Part shown: positions 14,203-51,208 of the stretch, one piece after another
Layout: every line of letters starts with the position of its first letter
Numbering within the stretch: position 1 is the stretch's first letter
Assembly: GCA_034520965.1 (NCBI GenBank)
Contig: JAXHMY010000007.1
Span: forward strand, 128,001-192,000
DNA: 64,000 bases
Direction of reading: 5' to 3'
Source: Spirochaetia bacterium
Lineage (GTDB): Bacteria > Spirochaetota > Spirochaetia > DSM-16054 > Sediminispirochaetaceae
The notes under the pieces: model-generated
What the model saw: the letters and a program-made list of their open reading frames with translations, nothing else
Databases searched by the model: none
Told to the model about the DNA's origin: nothing
Position numbers and translations under genes: made by a program

Positions 14203-14273
14203 ACATCCTCCTGGACCAATACTACCACGGATGGGGAGGTTATATAAACTACGGATATCTGGGGTTTTTTTAT

Positions 14274-14301
14274 TGACTAGTCAGACTAGTTAGTTTATAC
14301 T
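14274..14301 (+). promoter_or_regulatory. Promoter/operator of phd-vapC
   Basis: TTGACT (-35) inside palindrome TGACTAGTCA followed by GACTAGTT, TATACT (-10). Confidence 0.55.
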
Positions 14302-14320
14302 AATACTAAGGGAGGAATGT

Positions 14321-14563
14321 ATGCGTATATGGTCGCTACAGGATGCAAAGGCTCGTTTCAGTGAACTGGTGAATGTGTGCCTGGAGAGCGGGGCTCAGGT
14401 GATAACCCGGCATGGCCGGGAGGCGGTGGTGGTGTTGCCCGCCGATGAATACAGGCGGATCACGGCTCCGAAGCAGAGTTTAAAAGAGTTTTTTGTCGCG
14501 GCGCCGCGGGTTGAGTTACAGATCGATCGCTCCGGGGATACTGGACGGGAGGTGGAGCTGTGA
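14321..14563 (+). CDS. Phd/YefM family antitoxin
   Basis: WSLQDAKARFSELV, QVITRHGREAVVV. Confidence 0.92.
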   Translation: MRIWSLQDAKARFSELVNVCLESGAQVITRHGREAVVVLPADEYRRITAPKQSLKEFFVAAPRVELQIDRSGDTGREVEL

Positions 14564-14979
14564 TTTTGCTCGATACCTGTGTGATTTCCGAAGTTTTGCG
14601 TCCGGATCCTTCGGCGGAGGTTGTTGAGTGGCTGGACAGCTTGCCGGAAGAGCAGGTGTATCTGCCGGCCTTGGTACTGGGGGAGCTGGAGAAGGGGGTC
14701 GAGCTGCTGCCGGAGGGGTCCAAGCAAACCGCCCTAAGGGTGTGGCTGGAGCAGCTGCGCCGGCGTTTTAGCGGGCGGATTTTGAGTTTTGACGAGGAGA
14801 CGGCGGTACGCTGGGGCGATCTAAGTGCCCGCTGTCAGGGTACCGGCCGGCGCCTGCCGGTGGTGGACGGGATGCTGGCGGCCACGGCTTTGCAGTATGC
14901 AGCCTTGCTGGCAACCCGCAATGTGGAGGGTTTTCGCGAGACCGGGGTAACGCTTATCAACCCCTGGGAGGCGGGATAA
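14560..14979 (+). CDS. vapC: VapC PIN-domain toxin
   Basis: LLDTCVISE, DGMLAATA, ATRNV; overlaps antitoxin stop. Confidence 0.92.
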   Translation: MILLDTCVISEVLRPDPSAEVVEWLDSLPEEQVYLPALVLGELEKGVELLPEGSKQTALRVWLEQLRRRFSGRILSFDEETAVRWGDLSARCQGTGRRLPVVDGMLAATALQYAALLATRNVEGFRETGVTLINPWEAG

Positions 14980-15183
14980 GTAAACTAAGGATATAGTAAG
15001 TGTGTACAGACTGACACACAAGCTCACTCGGGCCGGCTACCGGCGATGGCCGGCGGGCTTCGGGCGGGCGGCAGCCGTCGCGCAGCGCGATAGCCATCCG
15101 CCCGGGCGGCCCCGGCCGTCTATGGAATTGCATTTTTAGAAAAAAGTTAAAGAGAGATACTGTACTCTCCAGCTTCCTTGTTG

Positions 15184-16518: not shown

Positions 16519-16532
16519 GGGTGGTATCCTTT

Positions 16533-17789: not shown

Positions 17790-18198
17790 TTAACCTTACC
17801 TCCTAACTCAAGAATACTGCGCTTCCGGAGGATTACACATAGTCAATTTGTCCAGGGGGTAAAGGCCTGGAGTTAGGATAAAAGGCTGTAACAATAGTTG
17901 GTTGGAAGAGGGAGGGCCGGTGCGGCTTACTTTTTGTCGTGTGTTTCGGTTGCGCCCTGCAGTCGCCCGCGGAGCCAGACCAGCTCGGTTCGTGATCCGA
18001 GACCAAGTTTGACAAGTGCATTCGAAAGATGGCTGTCCAACCTAATCACAAGTGCGTGAAAACCCGGGGTATCGAGCTCCAATAGGGATAATGGCGTCGA
18101 TATTTGCTCTCTGCTTATAAAGGGTTTCTCTGCCATACATTATAGTAATAGTAATGTATGGCAGGAAAATCAAATTCTCACTCTATTTCCCTTTAAAC

Positions 18199-18685
18199 CT
18201 ACTCTCCAACCACGATCGTGAGCGCGCCGCTTGATGGCAGAGTCTCACCGTCGGGATAAGTCCCATTGAAACTGACCGAATCGGCGAGGTTTCCATCCAC
18301 ATAGATGCTCAAGGTAACGTTGGTAAGGGTAACCCCATCGTCTTCGCCGTCCGAGTCCAGCATGGTGATGTTGATACTTGCACCCGTGCAACCGGGAAGG
18401 GTCTCGGTAAGGAGCGTACCATCATCCGGATCAATGGAGGCGTACTTGGGATCCGATGGGTCGGAGAAATCTCCCGAGGGTTTCACCCAGGTGGTCGCTA
18501 CACTTACGCTGTCGGTGTAGCTTCCACTGAACCTCCACTCGACTGTGTGGGTGGTAGTATCATCGCAGGTGCTGCTGCTCCCTCCATCCATCTGCACCGG
18601 CACTCTCACAACCGATGAGCAGTACGATCAGGCTTACCAGAATCAAAGTTCCGAATAGTGCTGTTTTTATGTATTTGTTACTCAT
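18199..18685 (-). CDS. Acidic lipoprotein, frameshift near 18590
   Basis: GGAGG RBS, MSNKYIKTALFGTLILVSLIVLLIGC-ES, continuing into ORF 18199-18609. Confidence 0.6.
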
Positions 18686-19116
18686 ATTTTCCTCCTTTTA
18701 TAGTAACTAATATGGGGCGGAAAAACGGGAATCTCTGTAGTCAATTTGTCGAGGTGGTTTCGGTTTCGCCGGGAGGTATGGAAGAAACACTAAGATGCAG
18801 GTAAAAGAAATTCTAAACAGGGCTGTTAAGCTATATATTAAGGCCGCTGTGGCTGTCTTCATCCGGATGGGGAGGTTATGTAAACTACGGATATATCGGG
18901 TAGGGCAAGGTGGGCAACACGGATGGGCACAGATGGTGTTGGCAGGTTAACCGGCTCCTAACTGTGTTTATCAGTGGTTGCGGAAATATTTTTAAAATAA
19001 CTGAAAAGTGAACAACAGAAGGTTTCTTCCGAGACCATCTACAATTATATTGACTAATGCTGGAATGGAGTTAGGCTTGAATTGTTGCAGCTGGGACACA
19101 TTTAAGACCTGACCTT

Positions 19117-21999
19117 TTACTCCACAACTGGCTCAGGTTTTTCAACTGGGAATTTGATGGTAAATTTTGGAGAGGGGCTCTTTTCTAATTCCAGGGTTCC
19201 CTCTAACTGCTTTATGAGGATAGATATTAGCTTTAAGCCTGAGGTTTCCGTATTCTCTATATCAATATCATCGGGAAATGGATTTCCGCTATTCGAAAGG
19301 CTAAAGCGATAGAGCTTGCTGTCTTTATCTTCTACGAAGCTCACGGTAAATATAGCTCCATCTTTTGGAGGTAAAGCCGTATTTAATAGCGTTTGTGGCT
19401 ATCTCGTTTGCGATTAAACCCAGGGAGATCGTAGTCTTGGTGGAAATGCTCAGCTCTTCAATTTCATTGATTATTCGTACATTCCTGTCGGCGGTGGAAG
19501 AGAATATTGTTTTCAAAAGTTCCTGGAAGTATTCTCTTACCTCAATTCTGTCTAATTCAGTGTAATGCTGGAGCTTCTCATGCACCAATTGAATTGCATC
19601 TATTCTATGTTTCAGGTCGGATAGATCAGCTTCAGACTCTGAGTCTTTTAAGCTGATAAGAGAGGATACCATGGAGAGGTTGTTTTTTACCCTGTGGTTG
19701 AGCTCTTTCATCAGGAAGTCCTTTTCTATGAGAGCTTTTCTGAGGGCTTTTTCATTGTTCTTGCGCTCGGTAATATCGCGAATGCTCGATACCACGAACT
19801 TCTTTTTTCCTTCGGTGTAGAGGTAGGCACTGGCACTTCTATCGGAATAACGCAACACCGTCTTTTCTTATATTCTCGGTTTCGAAGGTAAGATGTTGTT
19901 TACGCTTTAGTTCTTGGGCATACTGATGCATTGCAGATACGCTGTTCTCCGGTATTACACTTTTAGCAGACATATTCAGGAGCTTTCCCTGCCGTACTGC
20001 AATAAAATACTGGCCTGTTCATTTACCGCGATATTCTGGCTCGGCAGATCATCCTCGTCTATCCCATGGACGAAGATGGCGTCGTTTGAGTAATTAAAGA
20101 GCAAGCGGTATTTTTCTTCACTCTCTTTCAAGGCTTTCTCTTTTTCTCTTCTTTCTGTGAGGTTCCGGGAAACCCCGAAGTGATACTTCTCCTCCGTCGA
20201 GCATGAAAAAGATGCCATTCACTTCGACGGGTATCTCCTTTCCGCTTTTGTGTCTATGGATAGTCTCAAACAATACAGTGGTCCCCTCCGGTTGGTCCTT
20301 CCAGAATTCGATAAAACGCGCAGATGGAAAGTTTAGGTCGACATCGTCGATTGTTAATTGCAGCAGCTCTTCCTTTGAATAGCCGAGCATTTTACAGGCA
20401 GTATAATTGGCCTGGAAAATTTTGCCCGTTTCGTTTAGTAAATACACCGCATCGATACTGTTTTCCATCAAATTGCGGTACAGAGCCTCCTTTGCGCGAA
20501 GCTCCTTTTCCGCCTGTTTTTGCTCGGTAATGTCCATTACGGTAAAGGTAACCCCCTGGGAGATGTCGGCCGGATGGATGGGGGATGAGGCAAGAAGAAC
20601 TTCCATGATCGTCCCGTCTTTTTTTTGCCAGCGGGTTTCAACCCTTCCGCTGCCCTGTGTATCTATCTGACGGTACTTCTCTGAGCCGACGTACTCAAAA
20701 TCCTCTTGAGACGCATAGAAAATCCGGGCGGGCTTACCGATAAGCTCATCACGGCAGTAGCCGTCATAAAACAGAGTTTTTCGTTTGCTTCTACTATTGT
20801 CCGTTTTTTTCTGCCTTGAACGACCCCGATGCCCGTGGGAGCCGCCTTCAAGATGCTCGTGATTTTGTCGCTGCTCTCCTTCAATTCCGCCTCCACCTGT
20901 TTTTGGGCTGTCAAGTCATGGCCAATAATGAGGGCTGCGGGTGAAGAGTTGAAGGTTATCGGTATCGAGGTGGATTCGCAGCAGCGGGTTTTTCCGTCCC
21001 GGCGAAGGATAATAATTTCCTCGGCAGGATTTTTACGGCCGGCTTCGAGTTTTTCCATTCGTTCTTTGACTCTTTTGAGCGAGTCCGCGGAAACAGTCGG
21101 CCCCACGGGTGTACCTATGAGCTCTTGGGCAGAGGCATACCCCCACATTTCCGCCGCACTGGGGTTGCTGTAGACATATTTCCCATCTTGAACTACGAGT
21201 ATAGGAGTAGGTGCGGAACGCAGCAAAAGATCGTACTGTTCCCGCTGCCTGTCGAGTTCCTCCTGCATGAGCTTGGATTCGGTTATATCCTGGACGTGGG
21301 TTACGAAGTGGAGGGGTTTTCCCTCTGAATCACGCAGAAGCATGCTGTTGACATCGGCCCATACTACCGTGCCGTTTTTGCGGATATAGCGTTTGATGAA
21401 CTGTCTGCTATCGGTCTTCCCATCGAGCATTGATTTCATTTGATCGACACTCATTTCGACATCTTCCGGGTGGGTCAGTTTCGTAAAATTAACCGAGAAA
21501 ATTTCCGTCGGTGAATAACCGAGCATAGAGGCAAAGGCCTCGTTTACCCGCAGGAGTTCTCCGGTGGGGGAGGTGAGGACCATTCCAACGGAGGTATACT
21601 CAAAGGCTTTGCGGAACTTATCCTCGCTCTCCCAGAGGCGAAAGGCCATCCTGATAGAGGCAAGCAGTACCGTCTCGCCAGAGTTTTTAACGATGTAGCC
21701 GTAGGAGGTAATGCCCTCGGTCTTTTCCACTACCGCCGGCTCAGTATGGGAGGAGAGAAATACAACCGGCAGGTCGCGGGTCTCGAGTATTTTTTCGGCA
21801 GCTTCGGTTCCGTCCATTCCAACGCCCAGATCGATGTCCATGAGTATAAGGGAAATGTCGGGATCCCAGGCAGCCTCTTCGACGGCTTTCCGGCCGCTGT
21901 AGACGGTGCTTACCTCAAAGCCGGTGCTTTTTCAGCATCCGGGCTTCGGACATTGCGATAATTGCCTCATCTTCGACTCAAGAGGATCTTTCTGGACAC
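19117..21999 (-). CDS. Hybrid REC-multiPAS histidine kinase (HisKA_2/HWE type), several frameshifts
   Basis: Receiver (VEDEA, MDIDLG..MDG, YGYIVK), several PAS/PAC repeats, ELNHRVKNNL, NEIATNAIKY, GLKLI. Confidence 0.85.
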
Positions 22000-22168: not shown

Positions 22169-22276
22169 AGCTCGCTGTTGGCTTCCGGCTCCGCTGGTAT
22201 CTCCTGCACCGGCGCTCTCGCAACCGGTAAGCAATACCATAAGGCTTGCCAGAATCAAAGTGCCGAATAGGGCTGT
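22169..22276 (-). pseudogene. Remnant of a lipoprotein signal region paralogous to the gene at 18685
   Basis: Translates TALFGTLILASLMVLLTGCESAGAG, no start codon; nucleotide similarity to 18595-18665. Confidence 0.65.
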
Positions 22277-22443
22277 TAAGCTATTTATTAAGGCCGCTGT
22301 GGCTGTATTCATCCGGATGTTATATAAACTAGGGATATATTGCCCTGGTGGCGTGCTTTACGCGTATACTCGTCGCGCATACTCGTAGTTATTTAACTTG
22401 TCTCTGCTGCACAAGACGTGTATGATCTAGTTCAGTTAACATC

Positions 22444-26540: not shown

Positions 26541-26769
26541 GCGTTTCTTCCTTGGTGGTTTTTGTATCGATGGGTAGAGTGTAGCAAAGCAAGCAGTATT
26601 AATCGAGCAATTTAGATAGGGAGGTTATATAAACTAGGGATATATGGTTCTGACCGCACGCTTTGCGTGATTGGCATGTGACCACTGGAGGGCAGTTGTT
26701 GCCGGTTTCATCTATTTTCTACTTGAGCTTTTAGTTTACCATTTTACCCTGAATCCCTATACTGTGACC

Positions 26770-29746: not shown

Positions 29747-29803
29747 AAGCGTAAGACCCTCGGCTGCGCTTACTGCGGCCTGGTTTTGTAACCTGAGGTT
29801 TGG

Positions 29804-29877
29804 GTTGTATCCTGGGGTCTATGTTGTATCCTGGGGTCTATGTTGTATCCTGGGGTCTATGTTGTATCCTGGGGTCT
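29804..29877 (+). repeat. 19-bp tandem repeat, about 3.9 copies
   Basis: GTTGTATCCTGGGGTCTAT x3 plus partial copy, no spacers. Confidence 0.95.
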
Positions 29878-30202
29878 GGGCGGGGGGCCGGCCCGCGGAT
29901 GGGGAGGTTATATAAACTACGGATATATCGGGCTGCACACGGGGCCCTTCGGCGGGCCTATCAGGGGGGCAACACGGATGGGCGCGGATGGGGATGAGTA
30001 TAAAAATTTAGGGTTTATAAATATATCTGTGTATATCCGTGAAAATCCGTAGTTAAATTCTTTTCTTTTCTTTTTTGAAGCAGCAGGCTGTTTTGAGGCC
30101 CCGTAGAGTTAACCTGAATAATTCGGGTGGGCAGCTTTGTTATTCCTCAGTATATCCTGCATATCTTAAATCTGGTACTCTTTAAGATATTTAAACATGG
30201 GG

Positions 30203-31107: not shown

Positions 31108-31293
31108 AGCAATCTCCCCGATCAGACTGTTTCCTGCCTATAGTTCCGTTCCCCACCTGGTCACTCTTCATTTAATAATAGTTTGTAATGATGCCGGCAG
31201 CAAGGGGATGGGGAGGTTATATATACAACGATTGACCAGCAGTTTGAACAGTGCTACTTTAACTTACTATTGATAATCTGAAGAGAAGAGAGT

Positions 31294-32471: not shown

Positions 32472-32786
32472 TACTGGGCTGTGTCGTGCATATTCTGCCG
32501 GCACGGATGGGGAGGTTATATAAACTACGGATATATTGGGTGTTCGCAGGCGGGTAACACAGATGGGCACGGATGGGGAAGGGTAAAAATTAAAGAATGA
32601 AGATTTTGAGGCTAAGAGCCTGTTAATCCGAGCGGCGGCGGTTGGTCCACAAGCAGCGATCCTCTGTGGATATTCGTAGTTAATTTTATATTATCTGTGT
32701 ATACCCGTCGCAAAAATCTACCCGATTAAGCTATGCGAATTTAATTACTTCTTTTGCTATCCTTTTGAAGTATATATTGTTTGTAA

Positions 32787-34270: not shown

Positions 34271-34335
34271 TCCCCTGGAAGTGCGCGCTGGTAAAGTCAT
34301 GTTCCAGATTCCTCCCCTGGGGCTTTAGCTGTGAG

Positions 34336-34378
34336 AGAGGCGCAGATGCCAACACACTATGATGCTTTGTTCAGGCAA
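34336..34378 (+). pseudogene. 5' remnant of an Rpn gene
   Basis: GAGGCGCAGATGCCAACACACTATGATGCTTTGTTCAGGC (MPTHYDALFR) matches the starts of the three Rpn genes. Confidence 0.7.
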
Positions 34379-34698
34379 TCGTTTTAGAAACTGGGCGTAT
34401 AGGTTGGCTCAGATAGGGAAGTTATGTGAAAAATTGATTCTTTACTGATGAATAGGTTATTAGAGTATATTTTGTCGCACCGGTGCGACAAGATAGAAAC
34501 AATTCTTCACAGAACATCGATACCAGGCCTCGATAGGCTTTGCACAAATTGGCTCTCTGATCACCTGCTTCACAGCTGTTTCAGGTCATCAATTTCAAAT
34601 ACTCGCGAAACGTTATATAAACTACGGATATATTGGGCATAGTCTGGGGTAAACCGCGGATGGGAGCGGATGGGAGAGAAAAATAATTTAATCAGTAG

Positions 34699-35094
34699 TT
34701 ATTTATCGATGTTATTCTTTGCTTGTTCGATTGTTGCTTCTATCTCATCAATAAATTTCCTGATTGTTGCTTCAGATGGAATTCCGTTTGGCATCAAACC
34801 AAGATCTGGAGGGTATCTTGTCTCGATATACACATCATTAATTTCAGCCAATATGTTTTCGTCTATTTTTATTTGGAATCCAATCTCTAATATAATTCCG
34901 TATAGTTTCTCGAGGTCGTGTATACGGGGAGTATTACTTCTACAGCTCTCAATTACAGCTTTAAGTATTTTTTCTAATGCTTGCTGGCAATGAAATGCTG
35001 CATTTTGATTAAGGCTTGGATCTTCTGATAGTTTCTTTGCAGAGTTTAGATCTTTTATTGCAAAATTGACCCATTCTTCAACTCGCTTTTTCAT
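34699..35094 (-). CDS. HEPN domain protein (toxin)
   Basis: FHCQQALEK, RIHDL, ETRYP. Confidence 0.9.
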   Translation of the reverse strand: MKKRVEEWVNFAIKDLNSAKKLSEDPSLNQNAAFHCQQALEKILKAVIESCRSNTPRIHDLEKLYGIILEIGFQIKIDENILAEINDVYIETRYPPDLGLMPNGIPSEATIRKFIDEIEATIEQAKNNIDK

Positions 35095-35428: not shown

Positions 35429-35607
35429 AATGTCCTATTGTAATATATTTTGGCTGCATTCTAAACTACTATTCATTATAAACGAGGTGAACCGAGACAA
35501 AATTGGGCGCGGATGGGAGAGGAATAGGTTATTTTTCTGAAGAAGGCGGCGCCCAGCCACTATCGCCGTTCATCCGCATAGATCAGTAGTTAGCTATTTC
35601 GCTTGCG

Positions 35608-38499: not shown

Positions 38500-38866
38500 A
38501 CTACCGCTTTGTTCAAGTTTTAGTAGTAGATGCTACCGAAAAATATACTTTCCGGCAAGCGATTACTCCGTCGCGCAGCGCGGATGGGGAGGTTATATAA
38601 ACTACGGATATATAAGGTTTACGCACGTGGGTAACCACGGATGTGCACGGATGGGAGGGGGGAGGTTTTTGAGGGGTAAGAATTTTAGGCTACTATCCTG
38701 GGAGAGCGGCTGGCGATGGTTGACTGCCGCCGTCCCGATATCAGTATTCATTCGTGAACATCCGCGGTTTAATTTATCTTCTTCCATCCGCGCATATCCG
38801 TAGTTAATTTCTTTATTCCTGAAGCAATAGAGTGTTTTGTGCCTCTTTTACTATAGGGAGGCACGT

Positions 38867-39544
38867 ATGCCATCACACTATGATGCTTTGTTCAGGCGGC
38901 TGTTTGAGAACCCGGAGGTCAGTGCAGATTTTGCCCGTAACTACCTGCCGGTGGATTATAAAGGAAAAATCGACTTCGAGAGTGCTGCTATTGATCGGGA
39001 TCCACTGCAGTGTGCCGATTTAGTTGATGCTCTTAGCAGAGCACATGTACCGCACTTTGAACCGCTTTTGTTCGACTTGAACCGAATTGACGATAAGCGA
39101 CTGCGCGGATCTGTACAAACGGTGGTGGGCTTGCTATCTTTGAAGTATATTAAGCACCGCTTTACCGAGGGCCTGGTTGCTTACCTGCTGCAAGAGCTGC
39201 ATCGGCTACCACGTGAGAGCAACTTTTTGCATGAGTTCTATATGACTTTGATTAAGTTCAAAGCAGAGGAGGATCTGCAGAGGTTTCTGCAGATGGCCAG
39301 AGAGATGAATTACCGGGATATGGAGGAAGATATGATGACCTACGGACAGAGATTGTTAAAAGAGGGACGGGTCGAAGGTCTGCAAGACTCGTTGAAAAGA
39401 CAACTAAAGAAAAAATTCGGCCTGGAAACAGAGGAATCGGTGAAGATAAACCAGATTAAGGATTCCAACAAGCTGGAGGCTGCTCTTGATGAGATTTTAA
39501 GCGCAGAGACAAAGCAGCAGGTGCTGGAGAAGCTGGGGCTGTAG
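38867..39544 (+). CDS. Rpn family nuclease paralogue 1, catalytic core deleted in frame
   Basis: HYDALFRRLF start and KLGL end as in the 49722 copy but lacks 85 aa including TDLLY and YDHKS. Confidence 0.85.
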   Translation: MPSHYDALFRRLFENPEVSADFARNYLPVDYKGKIDFESAAIDRDPLQCADLVDALSRAHVPHFEPLLFDLNRIDDKRLRGSVQTVVGLLSLKYIKHRFTEGLVAYLLQELHRLPRESNFLHEFYMTLIKFKAEEDLQRFLQMAREMNYRDMEEDMMTYGQRLLKEGRVEGLQDSLKRQLKKKFGLETEESVKINQIKDSNKLEAALDEILSAETKQQVLEKLGL

Positions 39545-39735
39545 TGCCGGCACGGATGGGGAGGTTATATAAACTACGGATATATGCTCGGGCTTGCAGC
39601 TCTGTGGGCGGGGCAGGCGGGTAACCACGGATGGGCGCGGATGGGAAAAATAATTATTGAGATTTTGAAAGCGGGCGGTGCCAGGCAGAGACTGCGCCCG
39701 GCTCAAAATCAGTGTTCATCCGCGAACATCCGCGG

Positions 39736-41346
39736 TTAATTGTTGTTTCCTATAGGTATCAGCATATGCTGAATTAGGAAATTCAGGTTATTGCATATGT
39801 ACTTTAATAGTGGGTTCAGTCTTTTTTCATTGGCATCTATACTAAGCAATGAGAGAAACCTTAGATAAATGGTGTCATCGAGAATATTCGTCAGGATAAA
39901 ATCCCAGGTTTCTTTCCTTATCAGAAAATATTTATTGTGCCGTAAGAGGGCCTTAATTCGTGCGTTCTCATTTTTTTCGCCGAATTCACGCTGCAACTCT
40001 TCAATATTACTGTCTGAAAAATCGAGCACCCTCTGAATCTTTTTTGCCAGATCGGGGTGCAGGGAATCCCCATCTTTCCAATGCATTATCTCTTCAGATT
40101 CTTCAATATCATATTGTACCAGGTCCTTAGAGGGCGTACCTTCCGAAACTCGGGAAAGGAATTTTTCTGTGAACTCTTTGAGAATATTTCCGGAATCTTG
40201 GGGCTTACCCTGTGGTTTATATTCCTCAAACACTTCATCAACCAACCGTTTGTCCTGAAAGACAGAATAGAATATGTGCTTTAGCTGTGGCTCGTCCATA
40301 TACTGTGTTGTTGAATCCCGAAATCCAGCCATAGCCAAATAGCTTTTCCCGAAAAGAGATGGGATCGTTTCCGGTTCCGGGTCGCTCTGATTGTTCGGAG
40401 TGAGCCGGCTTTCCGGCTGCTGCTCCATTATCCCGGAGTCCAAGATTTCACGAATGCATTCTCTTGGGGTCATGCCGGTTGTGCTGTCCTCCGACACCAA
40501 AATGGTACACAGATCCTCGATAGGAAAGTGCATATCAAGGTAGCTTTCTACCACTTCGTGTATGCCAAGGGTGTTCGGCCGCACATTTTTAAAATAGTTC
40601 TTCCAATAGTCACGAATAATCTCCCGGGAAAAGTTTTTCCGAATAAAGGTACCCAGTTCGTTATTTTCTGGATAAAGCAGCAAAAAGAAAAGCATTTCGA
40701 TTTGCACTGATGCGTGTGGTACCCATCGTTTTATGCGCTCAAGCAAACGGGAACAATTGCATCTGTCAGGTAATGAAATCGGTTTTTCGAGATACTGATT
40801 CACCCAATCCACGCTCTCCTGAATCTGAGCCCGAGTGATATCTCCGCTCACTACTGCGTGGGGTGTGAGTCTGTCTTCGATAAGGGTTGCAATCCCAAGC
40901 AGATATTTGTGGGAATCATATCCTTGGGTCTTTCCATCGAACACATGATACCCGTCGGTAGAAAGTGCCCTTATTTCCGGCATAGGGGTTCCATGGTGGT
41001 CTAGGAGGGAAAAATAGATGTCGCCATCTCTTTGAGTAGTATCAATATCTTTGTAGTAGTTAATGTCTCTGAACATCAGGAAGGTCTCAGTGTGCTCAAA
41101 ACTTGCTAAATCCCCGATGGTAAACCACCCAAGTTTGTCCGGATACCAGGGGCTCAGATATCTCTCCTTTGTGCGGTCCGCATAGATCATGGTTTCGTCA
41201 TAGCTATCCCTATCAACTATTTTTTCCATAAAGGGGTACTGTTCTATCAGCTGCAGCGTTTCCTCATAAACCGCTGTCCACTGGTCCTGTGTTATCCAGC
41301 TAAAATCAACAGAAAGTTCAATAACTATTCCCATTTTGCACCTCAC
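39736..41346 (-). CDS. Hypothetical protein (536 aa)
   Basis: Long ORF, no recognised motif. Confidence 0.75.
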   Translation of the reverse strand: MRCKMGIVIELSVDFSWITQDQWTAVYEETLQLIEQYPFMEKIVDRDSYDETMIYADRTKERYLSPWYPDKLGWFTIGDLASFEHTETFLMFRDINYYKDIDTTQRDGDIYFSLLDHHGTPMPEIRALSTDGYHVFDGKTQGYDSHKYLLGIATLIEDRLTPHAVVSGDITRAQIQESVDWVNQYLEKPISLPDRCNCSRLLERIKRWVPHASVQIEMLFFLLLYPENNELGTFIRKNFSREIIRDYWKNYFKNVRPNTLGIHEVVESYLDMHFPIEDLCTILVSEDSTTGMTPRECIREILDSGIMEQQPESRLTPNNQSDPEPETIPSLFGKSYLAMAGFRDSTTQYMDEPQLKHIFYSVFQDKRLVDEVFEEYKPQGKPQDSGNILKEFTEKFLSRVSEGTPSKDLVQYDIEESEEIMHWKDGDSLHPDLAKKIQRVLDFSDSNIEELQREFGEKNENARIKALLRHNKYFLIRKETWDFILTNILDDTIYLRFLSLLSIDANEKRLNPLLKYICNNLNFLIQHMLIPIGNNN

Positions 41347-41715
41347 ACTTCACGTAGTGCTGTACGCATAGCTCCATTATACTCCTCTGTTACTCCTTTT
41401 CAAAGCAGGCGACACGACAGATATAAAAGATATTTAAGCCGCGGATGGGGAGGTTATATAAACTACGGATATATTGGGCTGCGCACGGGGGTAAACCACG
41501 GATGGGCGCGGATGGGAGGGGATGGGAGGAGAACTATTTTGGGGAGTTATTAGTTGTTCATCACAGTGTTGGCTGCGATATGTGTATATTGCCGACGGCG
41601 GGCGGTGAATACAGCCAGCCCAATATCAGTGTGCATCTGTGAAAATCCGTAGTTATTTTCTTGTTTCCTGAAGCAGCAGGCGGTTTTGTGCCTCTTTAAT
41701 TATAGGGAGGCGCGT

Positions 41716-42650
41716 ATGCCATCACACTATGATGCCTTGTTCAGGCGACTGTTTGAGAATCCGCAGGTCAGTGCAGATTTTGCTAGTAATTACCTGCCGG
41801 CGGAGTATCAGGAGAAAATCGATTTCAAGAGCGCTTCTATTGACCGGGATATCTATATCGATGAGGTTATAAGGCGAAATTACACCGATCTGCTGTACAG
41901 GTTTGATAAGAAAGAAGGTAGAGGACAGCTGTATTTGTACCTGCTGTACGATCACAAATCTTCACCGGACAAATGGGTGTCCATCCAGCTCCTGCGGTAT
42001 ATCATGCTCATCTACGCAAGTGAACTGAATGAGAACCCAGAAGGTGAATATACTGCCAGAGATTTTTCCGGTGGTCTTTTATCATGGGACTGAAGAGTGG
42101 AAGCCTTCTCTGCAATCTGCCGATTGTATTGATGCTATTAGTAAAGATCATGTCCCGCATTTTAAGCCGCTTCTGTTCGATTTGAACCGCATTGACGATA
42201 AACAGCTACTCGGATCTGTACAAACGGTGGTGGGCTTGCTATCTTTAAAGTATATCAAGCACCGCTTTACCGAGAGCCTGGTTGCTTATTTGCTGCAGGA
42301 GCTGCATAGGCTTCCGCGTGAGAGCAACTTTTTGCATGAGTTCTATATGACTCTGCTTAAGTTCAAAGCCGAGAAGGAGCTGCAGACCTTTCTGCAGATA
42401 GCCAGAGAGATGAATTACCCGGGACATGGAGGAAGATATAATGACACGCGAACAGAGACTTCTAAAAGATGGACGAATTGAAGCTTTACAGGATTCACTT
42501 AAGAGGCTTATAAAGAAGAAGTTCGGTTTGGAAACAGAGGAATCGGTGAAGATAAACCAGATCAAAGACCCCGCAAAGCTGGAGGCCGCTCTCGATGAGA
42601 TCCTAAGCGCAGAGACTAAGCAGCAGGTGCTGGAGAAGCTGGGGCTTTAG
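41716..42650 (+). CDS. Rpn family nuclease paralogue 2, two frameshifts (near 42035 and 42420)
   Basis: Three overlapping ORFs rebuild a full Rpn/YhgA-like protein. Confidence 0.85.
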
Positions 42651-42958
42651 AGCCGGCACGGATGGGGAGGTTATAGAAACTACGGATATATGTGGTGTAT
42701 GCAGGTGGGTCACACAGCTGTGCGCGGATGGGATAATAATTATTATTAAAATTTTAAAGGGAGGCGGCTGTAGAGAGCGGCGCCGCCCGCCAATATATTC
42801 TTTCATCCGTGCATATCCGTAGTTAGTTCCATATCAGTGGTCATCCGCGAATATCTGCGGTTAAATTATATTTCTTATCTTCTTCCATCCGTGTTCATCC
42901 GTAGTTAATTAATTATCTTCCTCATCCGCGGTTGTCGCAGTCGGTTGCATCGTCGTAG

Positions 42959-43588: not shown

Positions 43589-43907
43589 CTTCCGATTCCC
43601 TTACATTATATGGATAGTATAGTTCATTTGCATTATCCGGTGAATCGGCACGAGCGGGGTCTGATTCACTACACATTTGTTTAGTGGAACTTGCGACGTC
43701 GCAAGCTTTTGCCGCGGTGTGGCTTTGTATTTGGGCTGTAATGAGCTAGAATTTCCAAAAAGGAAGTGTATTTGATGTCGATCTGCTCGCTGGCGGCACG
43801 GATGGGGAGGTTATATAAACTACGGATATATTGGGTGTGCGCACGGGGGTAACACGGATGTGCACGGATGGGAAATGGTTGGGAATTGAAGGGATAAAGT
43901 AAATGGC

Positions 43908-45536
43908 CTATCTATCTCTTTTTATTGTGTATAACCCTAGTATTGGTTTATTCCACACCATATTTTTTAGCCAGTTGCTGAGGGTCTGGTAGTTGGGCAG
44001 GCCGAGTAGTTTGGCGGCCTGACGTTTGTTGCCGCCGGCCTGCTGTAGGGCCCGGGGCAGGTAGTGCTGCATTAGTTCAGTCACCACATTATCAATATTG
44101 AAGTCTTGGTTCAGGGGGCGGTTCAAAAAATGTGGGACGGCTGCGGGAGAATCGGGGGCCGGGTCGGGGCGCACCAGTGATTCTTCGAGGAGGCTGCGGT
44201 TTATTTCGACAGCCGGGCTCCAAAGACAGGCGCGAGTGAGGGTGTTGATCAACTCGCGCACATTCCCGGGCCAGCTGTATTCGCGGATCAGACGCCGGGC
44301 GTCGATTGAAAGCTGCTTGTCTTGCCAGCCTTCAACGCCGGCAAAGCGGGAGTTGAGCTGGCCCAGAAAGTGGTCGGTCAGGGCTTCGATGTCCCGTTTG
44401 CGGCTGTGCAGCGGGGGCAGCTTTAGCACGCCCACGGCTATCCGGTGGAACAGGTCGTTGCGGAAGCTGCCGTCGGCCGACTCGCGGGCCAGGTCGCGGT
44501 TTGTAGCGCTTATTATGCGAAAATCGGAGTGACGGCGGAGGGTGCTGCCGACCCGCTGGAAGGATTGGTCTTGCAGGACCCTCAGCAGAAGGACCTGCAC
44601 ATGCATCGGCAGCTCGCCGATTTCATCCAGAAACAGAGTTCCGCTGTGGGCTTCTTCGATATAGCCGGTTTTATCACTGGCAGCCCCGGTAAAGGCGCCT
44701 TTTACATATCCGAAGAGCTCGGATTCTACCAGGCCCTGGGGCAGGGCGCCGCAGTTGACCGATATAAAGGGGCCGTCCGCCCGGCCGGAGGCGTTGTGGA
44801 TGGCCTTGGCAAACAGCTCCTTGCCGGTGCCGGATTCACCGAGCAGCAGTACGGGCACGTCGAACAGGGCGATGCGACGGGCCCGGTTGACCGTTCTTTG
44901 CATGATTTTGGAGTGATGGATGATTTCGTCAAAGGCCGGGGTGGCCGGGAGCATTTCATCGGGTAAGGCCAGAAGTTTTTCGTCGACCGGGGAGGTGGTA
45001 GTGCTGCGGGGATGATACTCTGCCAAGATATCGAAGGGCAGGATGACCGTCCGCACTCCCTGCTCTTGGCTGGTTTCGATTAAGCGGGCTGGGTAAATGC
45101 TGCTGGCGATCAGGATCCAGGTGGCAGCCATGGCCGGGGTGCCAGGGCTCAGATGAAAGGTGAGGGCCGGAGCCGAATACAAGGGTTTCCCTTCGGCAGC
45201 CGAGCCTGTCTGTGCGGCGGTGCTGTGGCCTCTCTTATGCGGCTTAATTCCATTTAACACCTTAACGGCGTGCTCGTAGATTTCGGCAAACTCGGTGGGC
45301 GAGCTGAGCTCCACCAGGTGTGTCGAGATTTCGAGGTCCGAATGGCGCTGCTGCAGCCAGGCGACATAGGCGGTGGTCTCGGCCTGCGAATAATTGGAAA
45401 GCAGAGTGAGGGATTCGTAGGGCTCGGAGGCGAGGGCCTGGGCGATGGGGCCGGCGCCGACCCCGGGTTCGTGCTGGGAGGCACGGATATCAGTGCCTCC
45501 AAGCCATGCGCATAATCGCGGCGGTTGCAAGCTCAT
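43908..45536 (-). CDS. Sigma54-dependent activator with RtcR/CARF-like N-terminal domain
   Basis: [25 protein letters not shown], intact [22 protein letters not shown]-terminal HTH; real stop may be near 43948 if one A is missing. Confidence 0.88.
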
Positions 45537-45658
45537 AGGGTAATAGTATAACAAATCTTGTAGGGGCACAAGAAAATTTATTATGCTATTGGTAGGTAGG
45601 GGCCGGCGGCTGGCCGCGGGACGTAGCAGCCGGGTTGGGTGGCTGCGTGAAGCCTCGC

Positions 45659-46858
45659 TCACATTATCGCTCCGTAGAGCTCCACCGGATCGCTCAGGTC
45701 CCACAGGGTCCAGTTGCTGCTCATGGCATCGGAGAAACGGCCGATGGAGTCGTAGTCGATGGGGATCCAGTAGCCGGGACGCAGGTAGGCGGTGGTGTAG
45801 GCGACCTCAGTAAGGCTTCCGTTCTGGTCTGCTTCGCCACTGACGTGTATGTAGCCGTAGCCGTTGATCGGGCGGGCCGACCAGACCATGGCAAGGGCGT
45901 GTCCGCTGCCGCCGCCGGGCGGGTAGAAGCTGGCCACCTTGCTGTTCCAGCCCCAGAACTCCAGCAGGCCGCAGGTGTACAGGGCGAAGTCTTCGCAGTC
46001 GCCGCCCTGTTGGGCCAAAAACTCATCCGGGGGCAGGGCGCGGTGGTTCGCTCGGTAGGTAAACAGCCGGTAGGTCTGCCGCTGAAAGGCCTCTACCTCC
46101 CGCCAGCTGAGGTGTCCGTTGCGGTCGGTGTCGGCTCCCATGTAGCGGGCCAGGAGTTGGCCATTGGTCAGGCCGGTACGCTGATAAAAAAGGTGGGAGT
46201 TGATCCAGTAATGGGCCTGCCGCCCGCTGTTGAAGCTGCGGCCTAGCTGGGCAGCCGTTATCCGGCCACTGGAGCTGCGGGAGAGGCGGTAGCCGCGGTA
46301 GGTCCAGCTGGCCGGCGGAGTGGGGGCAGTGCTTCTCTCAGCTCGCCCGCCATCAGACCCGTGAGCCCTGTCGGCCTGGTAAGATTCGGATTCATCGGCC
46401 CTCGAACCGCCGGCGCCGTCGCTAAGGTACTCTGTCAGGACTCCGGAGCTAAGCAGTGCCCATAGGATTACTGCCAGCCCTGCGATAGTGAAGCTGAGCC
46501 GGAAGAACTCGGCCAAGCCGCTCGAACCGGTGTTTTTGGCCGCGGCGGTGGTGTTTTTCTCGACCGGCCGCGGAGGGGCTGCCCTCGGACTCGGGGTTGG
46601 GTTCCGGGTTTCGGGCGGGGCCGCCAAAATGTGGGCCTGCCCTTCGACGATTTGCAGCCTCCGCAGGGCAAATGTGCGCCGTTCATGGCGCAGGTAACAG
46701 TAGGTCCGCACGTAATTATTTCCCCAGCGCTCGTAAAACTCCAGCGGCACGATGATACGCTGCGATACCTCGCCTTCGCCGTTTTCATACTGTATTCGGA
46801 CCGATTGATGTCCGTTCTGCAGCGCCTCTAAGGCGCGGCGTGTCCGTAACTCTTCCAT
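45659..46858 (-). CDS. WYL domain - TM helix - transglutaminase-like cysteine protease fusion
   Basis: [67 protein letters not shown]-hand-like loop; [20 protein letters not shown]. Confidence 0.75.
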
Positions 46859-46908: not shown

Positions 46909-47030
46909 TTTTATGTTTTTGGGATGCATGTCCTGTAGTCGATTTCCGGCCGTCGGAAAGCCGCAGGGCCAGAGCCAGTAGCCGGCTGCAGCGTGCAGCC
47001 TGACAAGTAAACCAGCGATGGAGGAAGTGT

Positions 47031-47612: not shown

Positions 47613-47704
47613 GTGAAAATAAAATATTTTGTTGCCGGTACAAATTATTTTATAGAAAGGGGCTGAGAAAGTCCGGCTCGCCCCGTTGCGGGGCAATTCT
47701 TTCC

Positions 47705-47720
47705 TGGCACGCTTCTTGCA
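47705..47720 (+). promoter_or_regulatory. Sigma54 promoter upstream of the second prsW-like gene
   Basis: TGGCAC-GCTTC-TTGCA, full consensus. Confidence 0.75.
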
Positions 47721-47954
47721 TAAAGTAGGGACCGGGCCTCAAGACCGGCGAGCCTGAGAGGGTCAGGTAAAGAGTGCATCTTATGTAAAAATGATATTTA
47801 AAAAACAGATGTAAAAAAGTGGCTTTTTTTGTCGCAGATGGGGAGGTTATATAAACTACGGATATATGGGGTTTCAGCAGGGCGGGCAACACGGATGGGG
47901 ATGGTTGGGAAAGACCGTGATTGACGGATGTGTTATAGTTGAGAAAAAGGGATT

Positions 47955-49481
47955 GTGAAAATGGTGTTGATTATTTCGGTGGCAACCAGTCTTATCTGGA
48001 TAAAAATTCTGAAAACCTTTGATGATGCCCAGGGGCTGAAGAGCAAGCGGACGGCGGTGAGCGGGTTTTTTCTGTACGGGCTGCTGAGCGTGCCGCTGGT
48101 GCTGCTGCTGTACGCATTGGCCGGACCGCTGGTGTATCCGATTACCCGCGATTCGGCGGTGCTGGAGAACCTGTTTTTGGTGGGGCCGGTGGAAGAGCTG
48201 GGCAAGTTCCTGGTTTTCTATCTGGTGGCTGTGGGCAGCGGGTCGATCCAGGAGCCCCGCGACGGGGTGCTGCACGCCGCTTCGGTGGGGCTGGCCTTTG
48301 CGGTGGTGGAGAACGTGTTTTACTCGGTATACGGCCTGGAATTGCTGCTGTACCGCTCTATGCTGACCACCGCCGGCCACATGAGTTATGCGGCCATCTG
48401 GGGTTTTGCGGCGGGGGTGTATTTGTACACACGGCCGGCGTTTATGCGGGCTGCGGCAGCGACTGCGGCTTCCCGGGGCTCAGCTGCCGGAGGGGCTGTG
48501 CCGCTTAAGCCTGGTGAATCGGAGAGCTTTGCCGACGGAGCGGCCTACGGGCCATCACTGGTGGTGAGTGCAGTGGCTTCGGCGGCCCTGCTGCACGGTC
48601 TGTACAACAGCTTTCTCGACCTGGGGGCCCTTGGTGCGGCCCTGCTGCTGGATGCCGGGACTGTTCTGCTGGCACTGGTCGGCCTGTCGCACCTGAAGAA
48701 ACTCTCCCCCTTCGCAGAGTTTCCGTTCTCGCAGTACCGCTTGGCTATTCCCCAGTTGAAGGAGGCCCTGCGGCACAATCCGGATAACTTCGTACTGCAC
48801 AAGCGCCTGGGGCTGCACTACATCCGCAGCCGGGACACCGCCAAGGGACGGCGCCACTTGCGACGGGCCTCCCACATCAGGCCGCGCGAGCTGTCCAGCC
48901 GCTTTTATCTGGCGCTGCTGGACTACCTGTTGGCGGGCCCGGGCAGACGAAGCCAAAGACAGCGGGCGAGGGGTGTGGTACCGGTGCTCTGGTCGCAGAG
49001 CAGGCTGATCGGCGGGGCTACACTGCGGCTTGGCAATAAAGCTGCAAACGATCCTGCAGCTGCTCCCGCCGATGAGGCCCGCCAGGCCCTGCACCGCCTG
49101 GCTGTGCGGATACCCCTGAAAAGCCTGAGACAGCTGCGCCGCCAGGTGAAACAGGTTTTTGCGGTACATCCGCGCCGCCGCGAGCTGTTTGAAATATGCG
49201 AGGAACTGGTTGCCGGTAAACGCGGTAAGAGCAGCAGCCCCCTGGACCGTGACGGGGTACTGCACCGCGGCCGGGAATATCCTGCGCACGAGGAGAGGCT
49301 TCGCGGGAAGGCGGCTCAAGAGGGATTGGCTCGCGAGTGTCCGGCCCTCGCGTCCGACACGAAGTCGGGGAGAATTTACTTTCCCGAGCCTCCCCTGGCG
49401 GCGGTGAATCCGCAGCTGGCCGCTAGGAAGATTCGTGCGACCGGCAGGATCATCGAACAGAAACGGCGGGAGATCGGCTGA
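47955..49481 (+). CDS. PrsW-family intramembrane metalloprotease with TPR-like C-terminus
   Basis: VEELGK, FAVVEN, GHMSY, HGLYN; paralogue of the 22444 gene. Confidence 0.85.
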   Translation: MKMVLIISVATSLIWIKILKTFDDAQGLKSKRTAVSGFFLYGLLSVPLVLLLYALAGPLVYPITRDSAVLENLFLVGPVEELGKFLVFYLVAVGSGSIQEPRDGVLHAASVGLAFAVVENVFYSVYGLELLLYRSMLTTAGHMSYAAIWGFAAGVYLYTRPAFMRAAAATAASRGSAAGGAVPLKPGESESFADGAAYGPSLVVSAVASAALLHGLYNSFLDLGALGAALLLDAGTVLLALVGLSHLKKLSPFAEFPFSQYRLAIPQLKEALRHNPDNFVLHKRLGLHYIRSRDTAKGRRHLRRASHIRPRELSSRFYLALLDYLLAGPGRRSQRQRARGVVPVLWSQSRLIGGATLRLGNKAANDPAAAPADEARQALHRLAVRIPLKSLRQLRRQVKQVFAVHPRRRELFEICEELVAGKRGKSSSPLDRDGVLHRGREYPAHEERLRGKAAQEGLARECPALASDTKSGRIYFPEPPLAAVNPQLAARKIRATGRIIEQKRREIG

Positions 49482-49721
49482 ATAGCAGAACAGGCAAGCG
49501 ACAGTGAACCAGACCTCCGGTAACAGCCGCACTTGTGGTCGACGCTGTGCCGGCACGGATGGGCGCGGATGGAAGGGGGAACAATTCTAAATATCTTGAA
49601 GGCAGGTGCCTCCCGACCTAATATCTGTGTTCATCCGTGTAAATCCTTAGTTAAATTTTTTTCCTGGTTTTTTTGAAGCAGAAGGCGCCTTTTGTGCCTC
49701 TTTTACTATAGGGAGGCGCGT

Positions 49722-50726
49722 ATGCCAGCACACTATGACGCTTTGTTCAGGCGGCTGTTTGAAAAGCCGGAGGTCAGCGCAGATTTTATTCGTAATTATC
49801 TGCCGGCGGGCTATCAGGGGAAAATAGATTTCGAAAGTGCTACTATTGATCCGGACACCTATATCGATGAGGTTCTCCGACGGAATTACACTGATCTGCT
49901 GTACAGGTTTGATAAAAGAGAAGGCGGCGGACCGCTGTATGTGTACCTGCTGTACGACCACAAATCATCACCGGACAAATGGGTGTCCATTCAGCTGCTG
50001 CGTTATATCATGCTCATCTACAGGAAGGAGCTGGAGAAGAAACATCCGCCGACGATACTACCGGAGGTGTTTCCGGTGGTCTTCTATCATGGGACTGAAG
50101 AGTGGACCCATTCACTGCAATGCGCCGATACTATTGATGCGCAGCGCAGAGAACATCTGCCGCATTTTAAGCCGTTTCTGTTTGATTTGAACCGTATTGA
50201 TGATAAACAGCTGCGCGGATCTGTACAAACGGTGGTGGGCTTGCTATCTTTAAAGTATATCAAGCAGCGCTTCACCGAGAGCATAGTTGCTTACCTGCTG
50301 CAAGAGCTGCATCGGCTACCGCGTGAGAGTAGTTTTTTGCATGAGTTCTATATGACTCTGATTAAGTTCAAAGCAGAGGAGGAGCTGCAGAGGTTTCTGC
50401 AGAAGGCCAGAGAGATGAATTACCGGGATATGGAGGAAGATATAATGACGCGCGAACAGAGATTGTTAAAAGAGGGTCGGGCCGAAGGGCTTGAAAAAGG
50501 ACTTCAAGAGGGCCGTGTCGAAGGACTTCAAGAAGGACGAGGTGAGGGCCGTGTCGAAGGCCTGCAAGACTCGTTGAAACGACAACTGAAGAAGAAGTTC
50601 GGTCTGAAAACGGAAGAATCGGTGAAGATAAACCAGATTAAAGAGCCAGCTAAATTAGAATCGGCCCTGGATGAGATAATAACCGCAGAGACCAAGCAGC
50701 AGGTGCTAGACAAGCTGGGCCTGTAG
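49722..50726 (+). CDS. Rpn family recombination-promoting nuclease (intact paralogue 3)
   Basis: HYDALFR, TDLLY, YLLYDHKS, PVVFYHG..W, EG-repeat linker, DUF4351-like C-terminus. Confidence 0.9.
   Translation: MPAHYDALFRRLFEKPEVSADFIRNYLPAGYQGKIDFESATIDPDTYIDEVLRRNYTDLLYRFDKREGGGPLYVYLLYDHKSSPDKWVSIQLLRYIMLIYRKELEKKHPPTILPEVFPVVFYHGTEEWTHSLQCADTIDAQRREHLPHFKPFLFDLNRIDDKQLRGSVQTVVGLLSLKYIKQRFTESIVAYLLQELHRLPRESSFLHEFYMTLIKFKAEEELQRFLQKAREMNYRDMEEDIMTREQRLLKEGRAEGLEKGLQEGRVEGLQEGRGEGRVEGLQDSLKRQLKKKFGLKTEESVKINQIKEPAKLESALDEIITAETKQQVLDKLGL
50445..50726 (+). CDS. Putative intragenic small protein RpnS (antitoxin)
   Basis: GGAGG at 50432 then in-frame ATG at 50445; equivalents at 39335 and 42441. 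Confidence 0.65.
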   Translation: MTREQRLLKEGRAEGLEKGLQEGRVEGLQEGRGEGRVEGLQDSLKRQLKKKFGLKTEESVKINQIKEPAKLESALDEIITAETKQQVLDKLGL

Positions 50727-51208
50727 TGCCCCCGCGGATGGGGAGGGGATGAGTGAATTGCGGAGCTAATTCTATTCATTGTAAATAAGTATTAGTGATT
50801 GAGTAGCAGGCTTTTATATTCTTATTAGCCGCTGACTGTTAATAATAGTAAGTTTTAGAAACAGAATTATCTTCTGAATTGATTTTTAATTTCCTCACAA
50901 TTTATTATCTGTGTACATCCGCGTTCATCCGTAGTTTATTAATAATCTTCCCCATCCGCGGTCCGTTCGCCTGCTTTTTAGTGCACAATGCCCTCGGCCG
51001 GCAGGTGGTGTATCAGGTGTATTACAAAGGTCATATGGCCGGTGACTACGTGGCCTATACTGTCAATAATGGACAATAATTTTTAGTTGTTATTTAATGT
51101 AGCATAAAATTTTTTATTTCTATTACAAGTTATTTTATCTATAGGAAAAATCCATCTTGATTTAGCTCACTTACTGTTTCTTATTACCCCAAATTCAACC
51201 CTTATTTT

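Follow-up and report, generated by a model that had tools for sequence, protein, structure and literature searches.

The stretch of DNA described here, called the window throughout, is 64,000 nucleotides (nt) long and corresponds to positions 128,001–192,000 of contig JAXHMY010000007.1 in the 3.35-Mb, 9-contig assembly of a spirochaete genome (designated G000). Between nikR and a group of BREX (bacteriophage exclusion) genes that begin at 53250, the window holds accessory and defence genes that are separated from each other by a composite intergenic repeat. The repeat occurs in 17 units between positions 14226 and 50962, every one of them on the + strand and in intergenic DNA, which agrees well with an earlier note on this DNA that had claimed about 16 co-oriented intergenic repeats. 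The element is specific to one genus and is tied to the joints of reassorting gene blocks. The contig that carries the window array is referred to as C7; the other repeat-bearing contigs of G000 are C3 and C5.

The repeat array and its gene blocks

A search for a 33-nt core of the repeat, allowing up to 3 mismatches, gave 10 matches in the window; they span 14228 to 47867 and are confined to the + strand. In 100 shuffles there was no match. Its inner 22-mer, GTTATATAAACTACGGATATAT, is present in 13 copies in the window at no more than 1 mismatch. The total of 17 units is made up of these 13 copies, one unit with a degenerate head (31206), and three headless or fused units (35498, 49554, and 50735).

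The units separate blocks of 1–6 accessory or defence genes. The blocks are often multi-gene, span 1 to 4.6 kb, and range in G+C content from 0.41 to 0.62; their genes lie on both strands (about 15 on + and about 20 on −), and one Phd/PIN operon carries its own promoter. The genes include Phd/PIN, two MazEF pairs, HEPN/nucleotidyltransferase, FG-GAP and ELWxxDGT-repeat surface proteins, lipoproteins, and an MFS transporter. Enzymes among their products include PrsW proteases, transglutaminase-like proteins, a fatty-acid hydroxylase, and a methyltransferase. The blocks also contain an SNF2 helicase similar to DpdE/ZorD, an RtcR-like CARF regulator with a WYL protein, a broken PAS histidine kinase, and three Rpn genes, one of them intact, along with one Rpn remnant. 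The gene content (toxin-antitoxin pairs, lipoproteins, a transporter, SNF2, a methyltransferase, and Rpn) and the differing G+C had been described correctly in the earlier note. So had the lack of an integrase or transposase in the window other than Rpn: among the 49 window open reading frames (ORFs) scanned, no integrase or transposase family was found besides PF04754, the Rpn family.

Anatomy and conservation of the element

The element is 80 to 280 bp long and consists of five modules, A to E. Module A is a near-invariant 33-bp head, CRCGGATGGGGAGGTTATATAAACTACGGATATAT. It is followed by B, a semi-conserved linker of about 21 nt that exists in a few sequence types and in some copies includes a 40-nt insert, and by C, a pair of direct CRCGGATGG boxes. 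Module D is a variable middle of 20–200 nt, often AT-rich around a GC-rich stem. Module E is made of 1–4 inverted copies of the box pair and terminates in ATCCGYRGTT; it has two forms, complementary to the head box and to the first C box, respectively. The tail past E is an inverted copy of the whole head in two units. Both the CRCGGATGG boxes that follow the core and the complementary arms had been reported in the earlier note, and both are present. Among 97 distinct copies from all sources, C is found in 78 and at least one E within 330 nt in 53, some of the copies scored without C or E being cut by contig ends.

The conserved part of the element is sharply bounded. Over 90 distinct copies, the share of the commonest base is 0.73–1.0 at positions −10 to +21 and 0.3–0.5 on either side, and the conservation of E stops abruptly at GTT. 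An A/T-rich AAWTT follows the GTT in about 73–86% of copies; the GTT itself is invariant through the anchoring used. The 88 distinct heads analysed are found in 46 different upstream contexts.

When folded as single-stranded DNA (ssDNA), the units form long imperfect hairpins. Each predicted stem is symmetric: two 8-bp boxes flank a 2-nt internal loop, with no recurrent bulged bases. The inner arm pair is G/T in 25 units out of 44, G/C in 9, A/T in 5, A/C in 4, and G/G in 1, and no compensatory variation was seen across these 44 arm pairs. Therefore, selection seems to act on the boxes as sequence rather than on their pairing. A search for inversion of D between the inverted boxes gave 238 same-strand matches and 0 opposite-strand matches.

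Other roles of the element were also considered. The whole window has no Rfam match at the gathering threshold, and promoters (27 against 21.9 ± 4.7) and terminators (22 against 21.6 ± 5.1) predicted between 29000 and 48500 are at the level of shuffled sequence. Inspection by eye spoke against a sigma-54 promoter in the head, its −12 element not fitting, and against a small ORF there, for want of a start codon; both ideas were dropped.

Units of the array

Three units, 5 (29893..30056), 7 (32501..32683), and 10 (39550..39739), have the full A-B-C-D-E structure. Unit 5 runs on into a remnant of the Rpn upstream region; directly upstream of it, at 29786–29880, are 4–5 tandem copies of a 19-nt unit (TTGTATCCTGGGGTCTATG). 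Unit 11 (41439..41656) is complete as well and has a decayed second head in front of it (41413–41436). In units 9 (38578..38807) and 12 (42656..42932), A-B-C-D is followed by 2 and 3 copies of E, respectively, and the tail of unit 12 is an inverted copy of the whole head.

Unit 2 (18861..18985) has A at 18864–18896, B, C boxes at 18918–18938, and a weak E-like end. Units 13 (43796..43877) and 14 (47832..47914) have A-B-C and no E; the unit of relative G002 that is orthologous to unit 13 has D-E. Unit 4 (26610..26661) consists of A, with 1 mismatch in the 22-mer, and a small insert, without C or E. Unit 3 (22305..22394) is a short form in which the left half of the head is replaced; its 22-mer has 1 mismatch, and a small insert leads to the arm CATACTCGTAGTT. 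In unit 8 (34598..34702) the 22-mer is intact in a head without its left half, and C boxes and a degenerate E (CAGTAGTT) follow. The unit at 35498..35593 is headless, with C-D-E only; homology to the related genome G004 and to contigs of two microbial-mat runs (X4/X6) begins within it, at 35504. Small deletions between direct CGGATGG boxes removed the head from units 15 and 16. In unit 15 (49554..49654) C-D-E is left, and in unit 16 (50735..50962), the right edge of the array, a head remnant is fused to a C box and followed by D and a full inverted copy of the head. A 74-nt stretch found twice with 86% identity, about 200 nt upstream of unit 2 (18592–18665) and about 30 nt upstream of unit 3 (22204–22277), suggests a duplicated block end.

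Two units are heads alone. One is the degenerate unit 6 (31204..31230). The other is unit 1 (14226..14260). It starts 25 nt upstream of the start codon of nikR, and the Phd/PIN promoter comes after it. This nikR edge, with the head of unit 1 and Phd/PIN after it, is common to G002 and four metagenome contigs. In the related genome G009, which is without arrays, the head at the nikR edge is decayed and a single E lies about 4.8 kb away; in another, G005, the head at this edge is reduced to its first 9 nt. The head is thus dispensable for nikR, and its decay in G009 indicates that nikR regulation is not what constrains it.

Distribution of the element

The 22-mer at up to 3 mismatches has 17 matches in the genome, namely 13 in the window, 2 at the start of C3 (−), and 2 on C5 (+), and no further copy elsewhere in the 3.35 Mb; scattered 10–11-mers elsewhere in the genome are chance matches inside genes. 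The genome-wide mapping that the earlier note had proposed as a check thus places the copies, co-oriented, at three loci, unlike scattered repetitive extragenic palindromic (REP) elements.

The other species-level genomes of the genus number 9, and 5 of them have the 22-mer at up to 2 mismatches; it is absent from all 31 genomes examined from other genera of the family and class. In a one-genome-per-species set covering 185,579 species, it was found only in five spirochaete metagenome-assembled genomes (MAGs), several of them titled Sediminispirochaeta, besides an isolated AT-rich chance match in a Lachnospiraceae MAG. A scan of viral contigs with an 18-mer gave 2 matches, both of them chance matches inside unrelated coding sequence. 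The 22-mer is carried by 32 metagenome loci, and the orientation of the copies is uniform within each of 47 stretches (45 contigs; 6 genomes and metagenomes). Counts from MAGs are lower bounds. Diverged units, in which the head box and the C boxes are kept and the centre is changed, are also found.

The head lies on the G-rich, presumably leading, strand at all three G000 loci (C7, C5, and C3) and on 3 further contigs of congeners. One contig of the relative G007 (C42) has no usable GC skew, and the diverged units agree with the G-rich strand in 1 of 4 contigs. Because some of those loci are orthologous, no rule of replication orientation can be claimed.

Reassortment of gene blocks at the element

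The blocks of the window reappear in relatives in other orders. Comparison with relatives, as the earlier note had advised, reveals blocks gained, lost, and reordered, with the joints exactly at the repeats. Scatter of the copies in both orientations together with conserved gene order in relatives had been named there as evidence to the contrary; the copies are not scattered in this manner, and gene order is not conserved in relatives, so the idea of a cassette array is not refuted on these grounds. The 46 complete units have 30 left-flank families and 22 right-flank families, and the same left block leads to the same right block in just 8 of 34 unit pairs.

The second most frequent block in the arrays encodes a 536-amino acid (aa) protein (39736–41346, −) with no match in Pfam, NCBIfam, or PADLOC. 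It is present in five contexts at 90–94% nucleotide identity and is found behind Rpn, SNF2, the fatty-acid hydroxylase gene, and a triple-E unit. Each time the shared sequence begins 2–4 nt past GTT, and the preceding E and D differ. A variant head of this block stays with it in four contexts. The methyltransferase block has the same left boundary, just past the GTT of E, and the left boundary of the four largest right-flank families is likewise at GTT. In the Rpn right-flank family, homology starts about 10–25 nt past GTT, behind an AT-rich stretch. Other breakpoints are located inside A-C. In contigs of the two microbial-mat runs, the 536-aa block lies between unit 8 and the HEPN block, with joints at the C/D border and at GTTATTT, and the block at 31.2–31.8 kb is joined to the SNF2 block via a unit. 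The joint positions in these contigs are the C/D border, just past the end of A, and the GTT of E. G004 is without the Rpn block between SNF2 and the 536-aa gene.

Blocks bounded in this manner might be taken for tandem non-autonomous cargo transposons (mobile insertion cassettes), with E as the left and A-B-C as the right end of each, several transposase-binding boxes arranged as in the ends of Tn7 or Mu, and a transposase that acts in trans or has been lost. E and the head are mutual inverted copies, as terminal inverted repeats should be; each end carries several boxes, repeated directly in that end and inverted relative to the other; and the head stays with the upstream block in four contexts of the 536-aa gene. 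However, E is unlinked to the downstream block, the left edge of the array is a head and not an E, and inspection by eye reveals no target duplications at the two fullest inverted-repeat pairs (42656/42932 and 50735/50962). Transposase candidates in the genome are limited to four small rve-type genes and a single Y1 transposase gene, all away from the arrays. We consider cargo transposons very improbable. Links to particular transposases were also rejected. The four rve genes, as candidates for a DDE transposase, are unlinked to the arrays, and the sole PF01797 gene, as a candidate for a Y1 transposase or REP-associated tyrosine transposase (RAYT), lies at the end of contig C1 with no boxes in its flanks.

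Rpn nucleases and other cargo

Rpn genes are the commonest cargo. An Rpn gene or remnant flanks 31 of 98 units, a count that includes at least one false positive of the loose pattern used. In the window all of them are on the + strand. A remnant of the 5′ end (34334..34600) is directly upstream of unit 8, gene 1 (38837..39544; PF04754) is an internally deleted copy, and gene 2 (41686..42650) is read in three frames and is either a frameshifted copy or an assembly error. Gene 3 (49692..50726) is intact and encodes 344 aa (PF04754, E = 1.5e-45; TIGR01784, 63.5 bits against a cut-off of 52.1). Membership in the family is supported by a PF04754 score of 155.8 bits (cut-off 21). Each Rpn gene has an E complementary to the head upstream of it and a head 6–8 nt past its stop codon.

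Copies with at least 75% identity are found in G000, G002, G004, and G005, with a fragment in G003, that is, in repeat-bearing genomes only. Among congeners without the repeat, just one Rpn homologue was found (52%, in G001). A further Rpn gene, 49% identical and from another genus, is followed about 115 nt downstream by a diverged A-B-C module. Kingston et al. (2017, PMC5350276) propose that Rpn proteins aid gene acquisition and ask whether specific sites exist in vivo, and a preprint ties Rpn genes to possible guided mobility (10.1101/2021.08.16.456562).

Two other block genes deserve mention. A response-regulator histidine kinase with PAS and HisKA_2 domains (19117–21841, −) is split into three ORFs in the window and is intact, with 952 aa, in metagenome contigs L107 and L114. 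The frameshifts in this kinase, in Rpn gene 2, and in the integron integrase IntI of the genome (see below) are possibly assembly errors. At 43908–46858 (−), an RtcR-like CARF-AAA-HTH sigma-54 activator (PADLOC, E = 1e-174) stands beside a WYL plus transglutaminase-like protein, and the activator and this neighbour may be a signalling defence pair.

The resident integron

The genome also has a sedentary chromosomal integron, at C3:39295–80998 (stretch L085 covers 68000–87999), with its cassettes on the − strand. The IntI-like gene lies divergently at about 79.7–81.0 kb of C3. It scores 185 and 174 bits in two frames, which points to a frameshift or a misassembly, and has the integron-specific insertion. 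Beside it, a 39-kb stretch contains 24 attC sites, all of one 150-nt family, and further clusters of resident attC are located at C8:1326–5193 and C2:425968. A profile built from 9 of these sites has 31 matches genome-wide, including the 24 beside IntI, and no copy within 14–51 kb of the window; the family is unrelated to the repeat. By eye, the resident attC sites show one-sided extra bases. A decayed copy of the resident attC is found at 59695–59781 (−) of the window (nhmmer, E = 1e-7), between genes of the BREX region and far from the integron.

The repeat array is independent of the resident integron. No gene of the Phage_integrase family adjoins the array among the 49 window ORFs, the IntI-like gene being on C3, and the repeat is absent from all 11 loci around IntI genes in 8 genomes. 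Of 17 genomes of the family, 8 contain an IntI that passes the curated cut-off. No IntI was found in the array-bearing G002 and G004, and G001, G006, and G009 have IntI and no repeat (MAGs 80–97% complete).

The units might still be attC-like sites, the array then being a cluster of attC sites lacking integron integrases (CALIN) with a second attC family. In that case, the resident IntI or another tyrosine recombinase, acting in trans, would recombine the ssDNA hairpin of C-D-E at GTT. The hairpin is bounded by TAAC...GTTA, and the A/T-rich stretch after GTT, the block boundaries at GTT as in cassettes, the co-orientation of copies, the toxin-antitoxin blocks as in chromosomal integrons, and the IntI genes of this genome and of the family all speak for such a view. 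The outer boxes of attC are RYYYAAC and GTTRRRY, complementary over 7 nt. The left outer box of the present repeat is GGGTAAC or TATAAAC, so that only TAAC/GTTA pairs and 4 of 7 positions are complementary. The symmetric stems without recurrent bulges and the lack of compensatory variation are points against attC-like sites, as are the two gene orientations, the blocks of up to 4.6 kb, and a middle part that is unlinked to the upstream block. In addition, the resident attC family has no copy at the array, no IntI locus has the repeat, and the presence of IntI does not track that of the repeat. Taken together, attC-like sites appear distinctly unlikely. Of the integron-like gene capture proposed in the earlier note, one part stands: clustered, co-oriented repeats do form the joints of gained, lost, and reordered blocks. 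In the strict sense the proposal is not supported, given the separate and unrelated attC family, the missing compensation, the genes running both ways, and an IntI that does not follow the repeat.

Host Xer recombinases and integrase-bearing elements

Xer-dependent modules, in which the host recombinases would act on the head and E as XerC/D sites, as in plasmid dif modules and integrative mobile elements exploiting Xer recombination (IMEX), are another candidate. The blocks do lie between oppositely oriented sites (E left, head right), have no recombinase in cis, and include toxin-antitoxin cargo, and part of the head presumably resembles a XerD arm. By eye, however, the 11-6-11 dyad layout is missing from both the head and E, and the array is not at a skew switch. 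We regard Xer-dependent modules as extremely improbable. A search with a degenerate dif consensus, at up to 3 mismatches, gave a sole dif-like 28-mer at C2:178561–178588 (3 mismatches), where the GC skew turns from + to −; the site is therefore likely to mark the replication terminus. It is unlike the head or E, and a dif link was dropped.

Tandem accretion of integrase-bearing elements at an att site was rejected as well, since no integrase was found in any of the arrays scanned and the first head directly precedes an ancestral Phd/PIN operon. Elsewhere in the genome there are two copies of three adjacent tyrosine-recombinase genes (C3:385349–388663 and C8:11336–14073), which we take to resemble the "recombinase in trio" element.

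Proposed mechanism and its main rival

The anatomy of the element, its co-oriented and restricted distribution, its conservation profile, the reassortment of blocks, and the breakpoints at the element are all observed. On this basis, we tentatively propose that the element is a directional recombination joint of a variable island, with boxes bound by a protein for which Rpn is the suspect, a reading that we find plausible without calling it probable. A protein encoded away from the arrays, or as cargo inside them, would bind or cleave the boxes. Blocks would be inserted, deleted, and reordered via recombination between co-oriented elements, and the element would thus mark the joints of exchangeable 1–6-gene blocks at three variable loci. 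The Rpn nucleases, of the PD-(D/E)XK type and the commonest cargo, would be the best candidates for starting the exchange. The joining may be site-specific or may proceed through short homology.

Several observations weigh against this proposal. No enzyme is linked to the element, and a scan of 212 ORFs of the window, relatives, and metagenome loci found no tyrosine, serine, or DDE recombinase family. Rpn itself adjoins only about a third of the units and was not found in G007 (88% complete) despite the arrays there, and RpnA of E. coli, which promotes RecA-independent recombination, is described by Kingston et al. (2017, PMC5350276) as cleaving DNA with little sequence specificity. Against 200 shuffles, the fold stability of two units is modest (z = −2.41, 4/200 as good; z = −1.51, 11/200). 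In two sister genera, and on one further contig of G007, diverged units stand alone next to ordinary genes, as expected of a plain intergenic repeat. Module D travels with neither neighbour, which calls for two or more exchange points or for gene conversion in addition. Alternative joints are absent from contigs of run X1, the best match to the stretch, a weak negative because contigs drop rare variants. Furthermore, breakpoints at the edges of conserved blocks are also expected from plain homologous recombination or gene conversion, and thus do not establish site-specificity.

This last point leads to the main rival, which we consider doubtful. The element would be a passive mosaic repeat of the type of bacterial interspersed mosaic elements (BIMEs) or Neisseria intergenic mosaic elements (NIMEs), with some other primary role (terminator, insulator, or cluster of regulator-binding sites), and it would shape the island, following horizontal transfer, only through the homology that repeated copies offer to RecA-dependent exchange and gene conversion. 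A mosaic in which conserved blocks alternate with variable spacers is what such a repeat would look like, and the types of B and D reassort independently of the flanks. The small deletions between direct CGGATGG boxes, the diverged single copies beside housekeeping genes in sister genera, and the lack of a recombinase among the 212 ORFs in and around the arrays fit as well. In addition, spirochaete genomes including Sediminispirochaeta are reported (PMC11602168) to be rich in repeats that resemble MITEs (a MITE is a miniature inverted-repeat transposable element). However, REP elements and BIMEs are dispersed in both orientations, and the 17 copies here are co-oriented at three loci. The 22-mer is letter-exact over at least 6 species-level genomes and 46 contexts while the spacers drift, which homology alone does not demand. 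The sharp cut-off at GTT is a further point against a passive repeat, and the scan at shuffle level (22 terminators against 21.6 and 27 promoters against 21.9) speaks against a terminator or promoter role.

A bolder version of the proposed recombination joint is that the arrays form an integrase-independent second cassette platform beside the integron, with composite sites cut by the array-borne Rpn or by an unlinked recombinase. We judge it unlikely. If true, it would let multi-gene blocks of defence and accessory genes be captured and shuffled in an ordered way that preserves their orientation, and the element would be the first natural DNA site for Rpn nucleases.

Comparison with known systems

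No published description of the element was found in the literature searched, whose coverage mostly leaves out subscription journals. To our knowledge, gene-cassette arrays in chromosomes are known almost exclusively from integrons. Here, a distinct repeat organizes swappable multi-gene blocks beside BREX in a genome that also bears a classical integron, and the two designs can thus be compared in a single host. In metagenomes and in this spirochaete genus, the 22-mer can serve as a simple marker of variable islands of accessory and defence genes. The array also offers a concrete candidate for the DNA site of in vivo Rpn action, a question raised in PMC5350276.

The Rpn/YhgA-like family is the link to that study, as the cargo genes of the array are PF04754 members. 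The accessible text of PMC5350276 gives no defined site or flanking repeat, whereas here Rpn lies between a fixed upstream arm and a downstream head.

BIME and REP elements of enterobacteria and the mosaic elements of Neisseria share with the present element conserved short palindromic motifs, variable linkers, and an intergenic location, and are also substrates for recombination and gene conversion. In contrast to their hundreds of dispersed copies, there are about 17 copies at three loci here, uniform in orientation, tied to the joints of variable blocks, and without an associated RAYT-type gene. Mobile insertion cassettes and MITEs likewise have inverted repeats, around passenger genes in the absence of a transposase; the present units differ in forming ordered tandem arrays, and no target duplications or matching transposase were found.

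The dif modules of Acinetobacter plasmids and IMEX (PMC10132070, in part; otherwise general background) are similar in being small modules, often toxin-antitoxin, that are bounded by short, oppositely oriented sites and contain no recombinase. The present sites are chromosomal and not of the 11-6-11 type, and the joints are far longer and composite.

The closest comparison is with integrons and CALIN (Cury et al. 2016, PMC4889954). In both systems co-oriented imperfect palindromes part unrelated accessory genes, blocks end at GTT, toxin-antitoxin cargo is carried, and arrays without an integrase are possible. In contrast to integrons, the element described here combines a palindrome with an invariant head of 33 bp lying outside it; each arm has several boxes, and there are neither bulged bases nor compensatory variation. 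Its blocks are often multi-gene, with own promoters and in either orientation, its middle is exchanged independently of the flanks, and its family is unrelated to the resident attC and uncorrelated with IntI.

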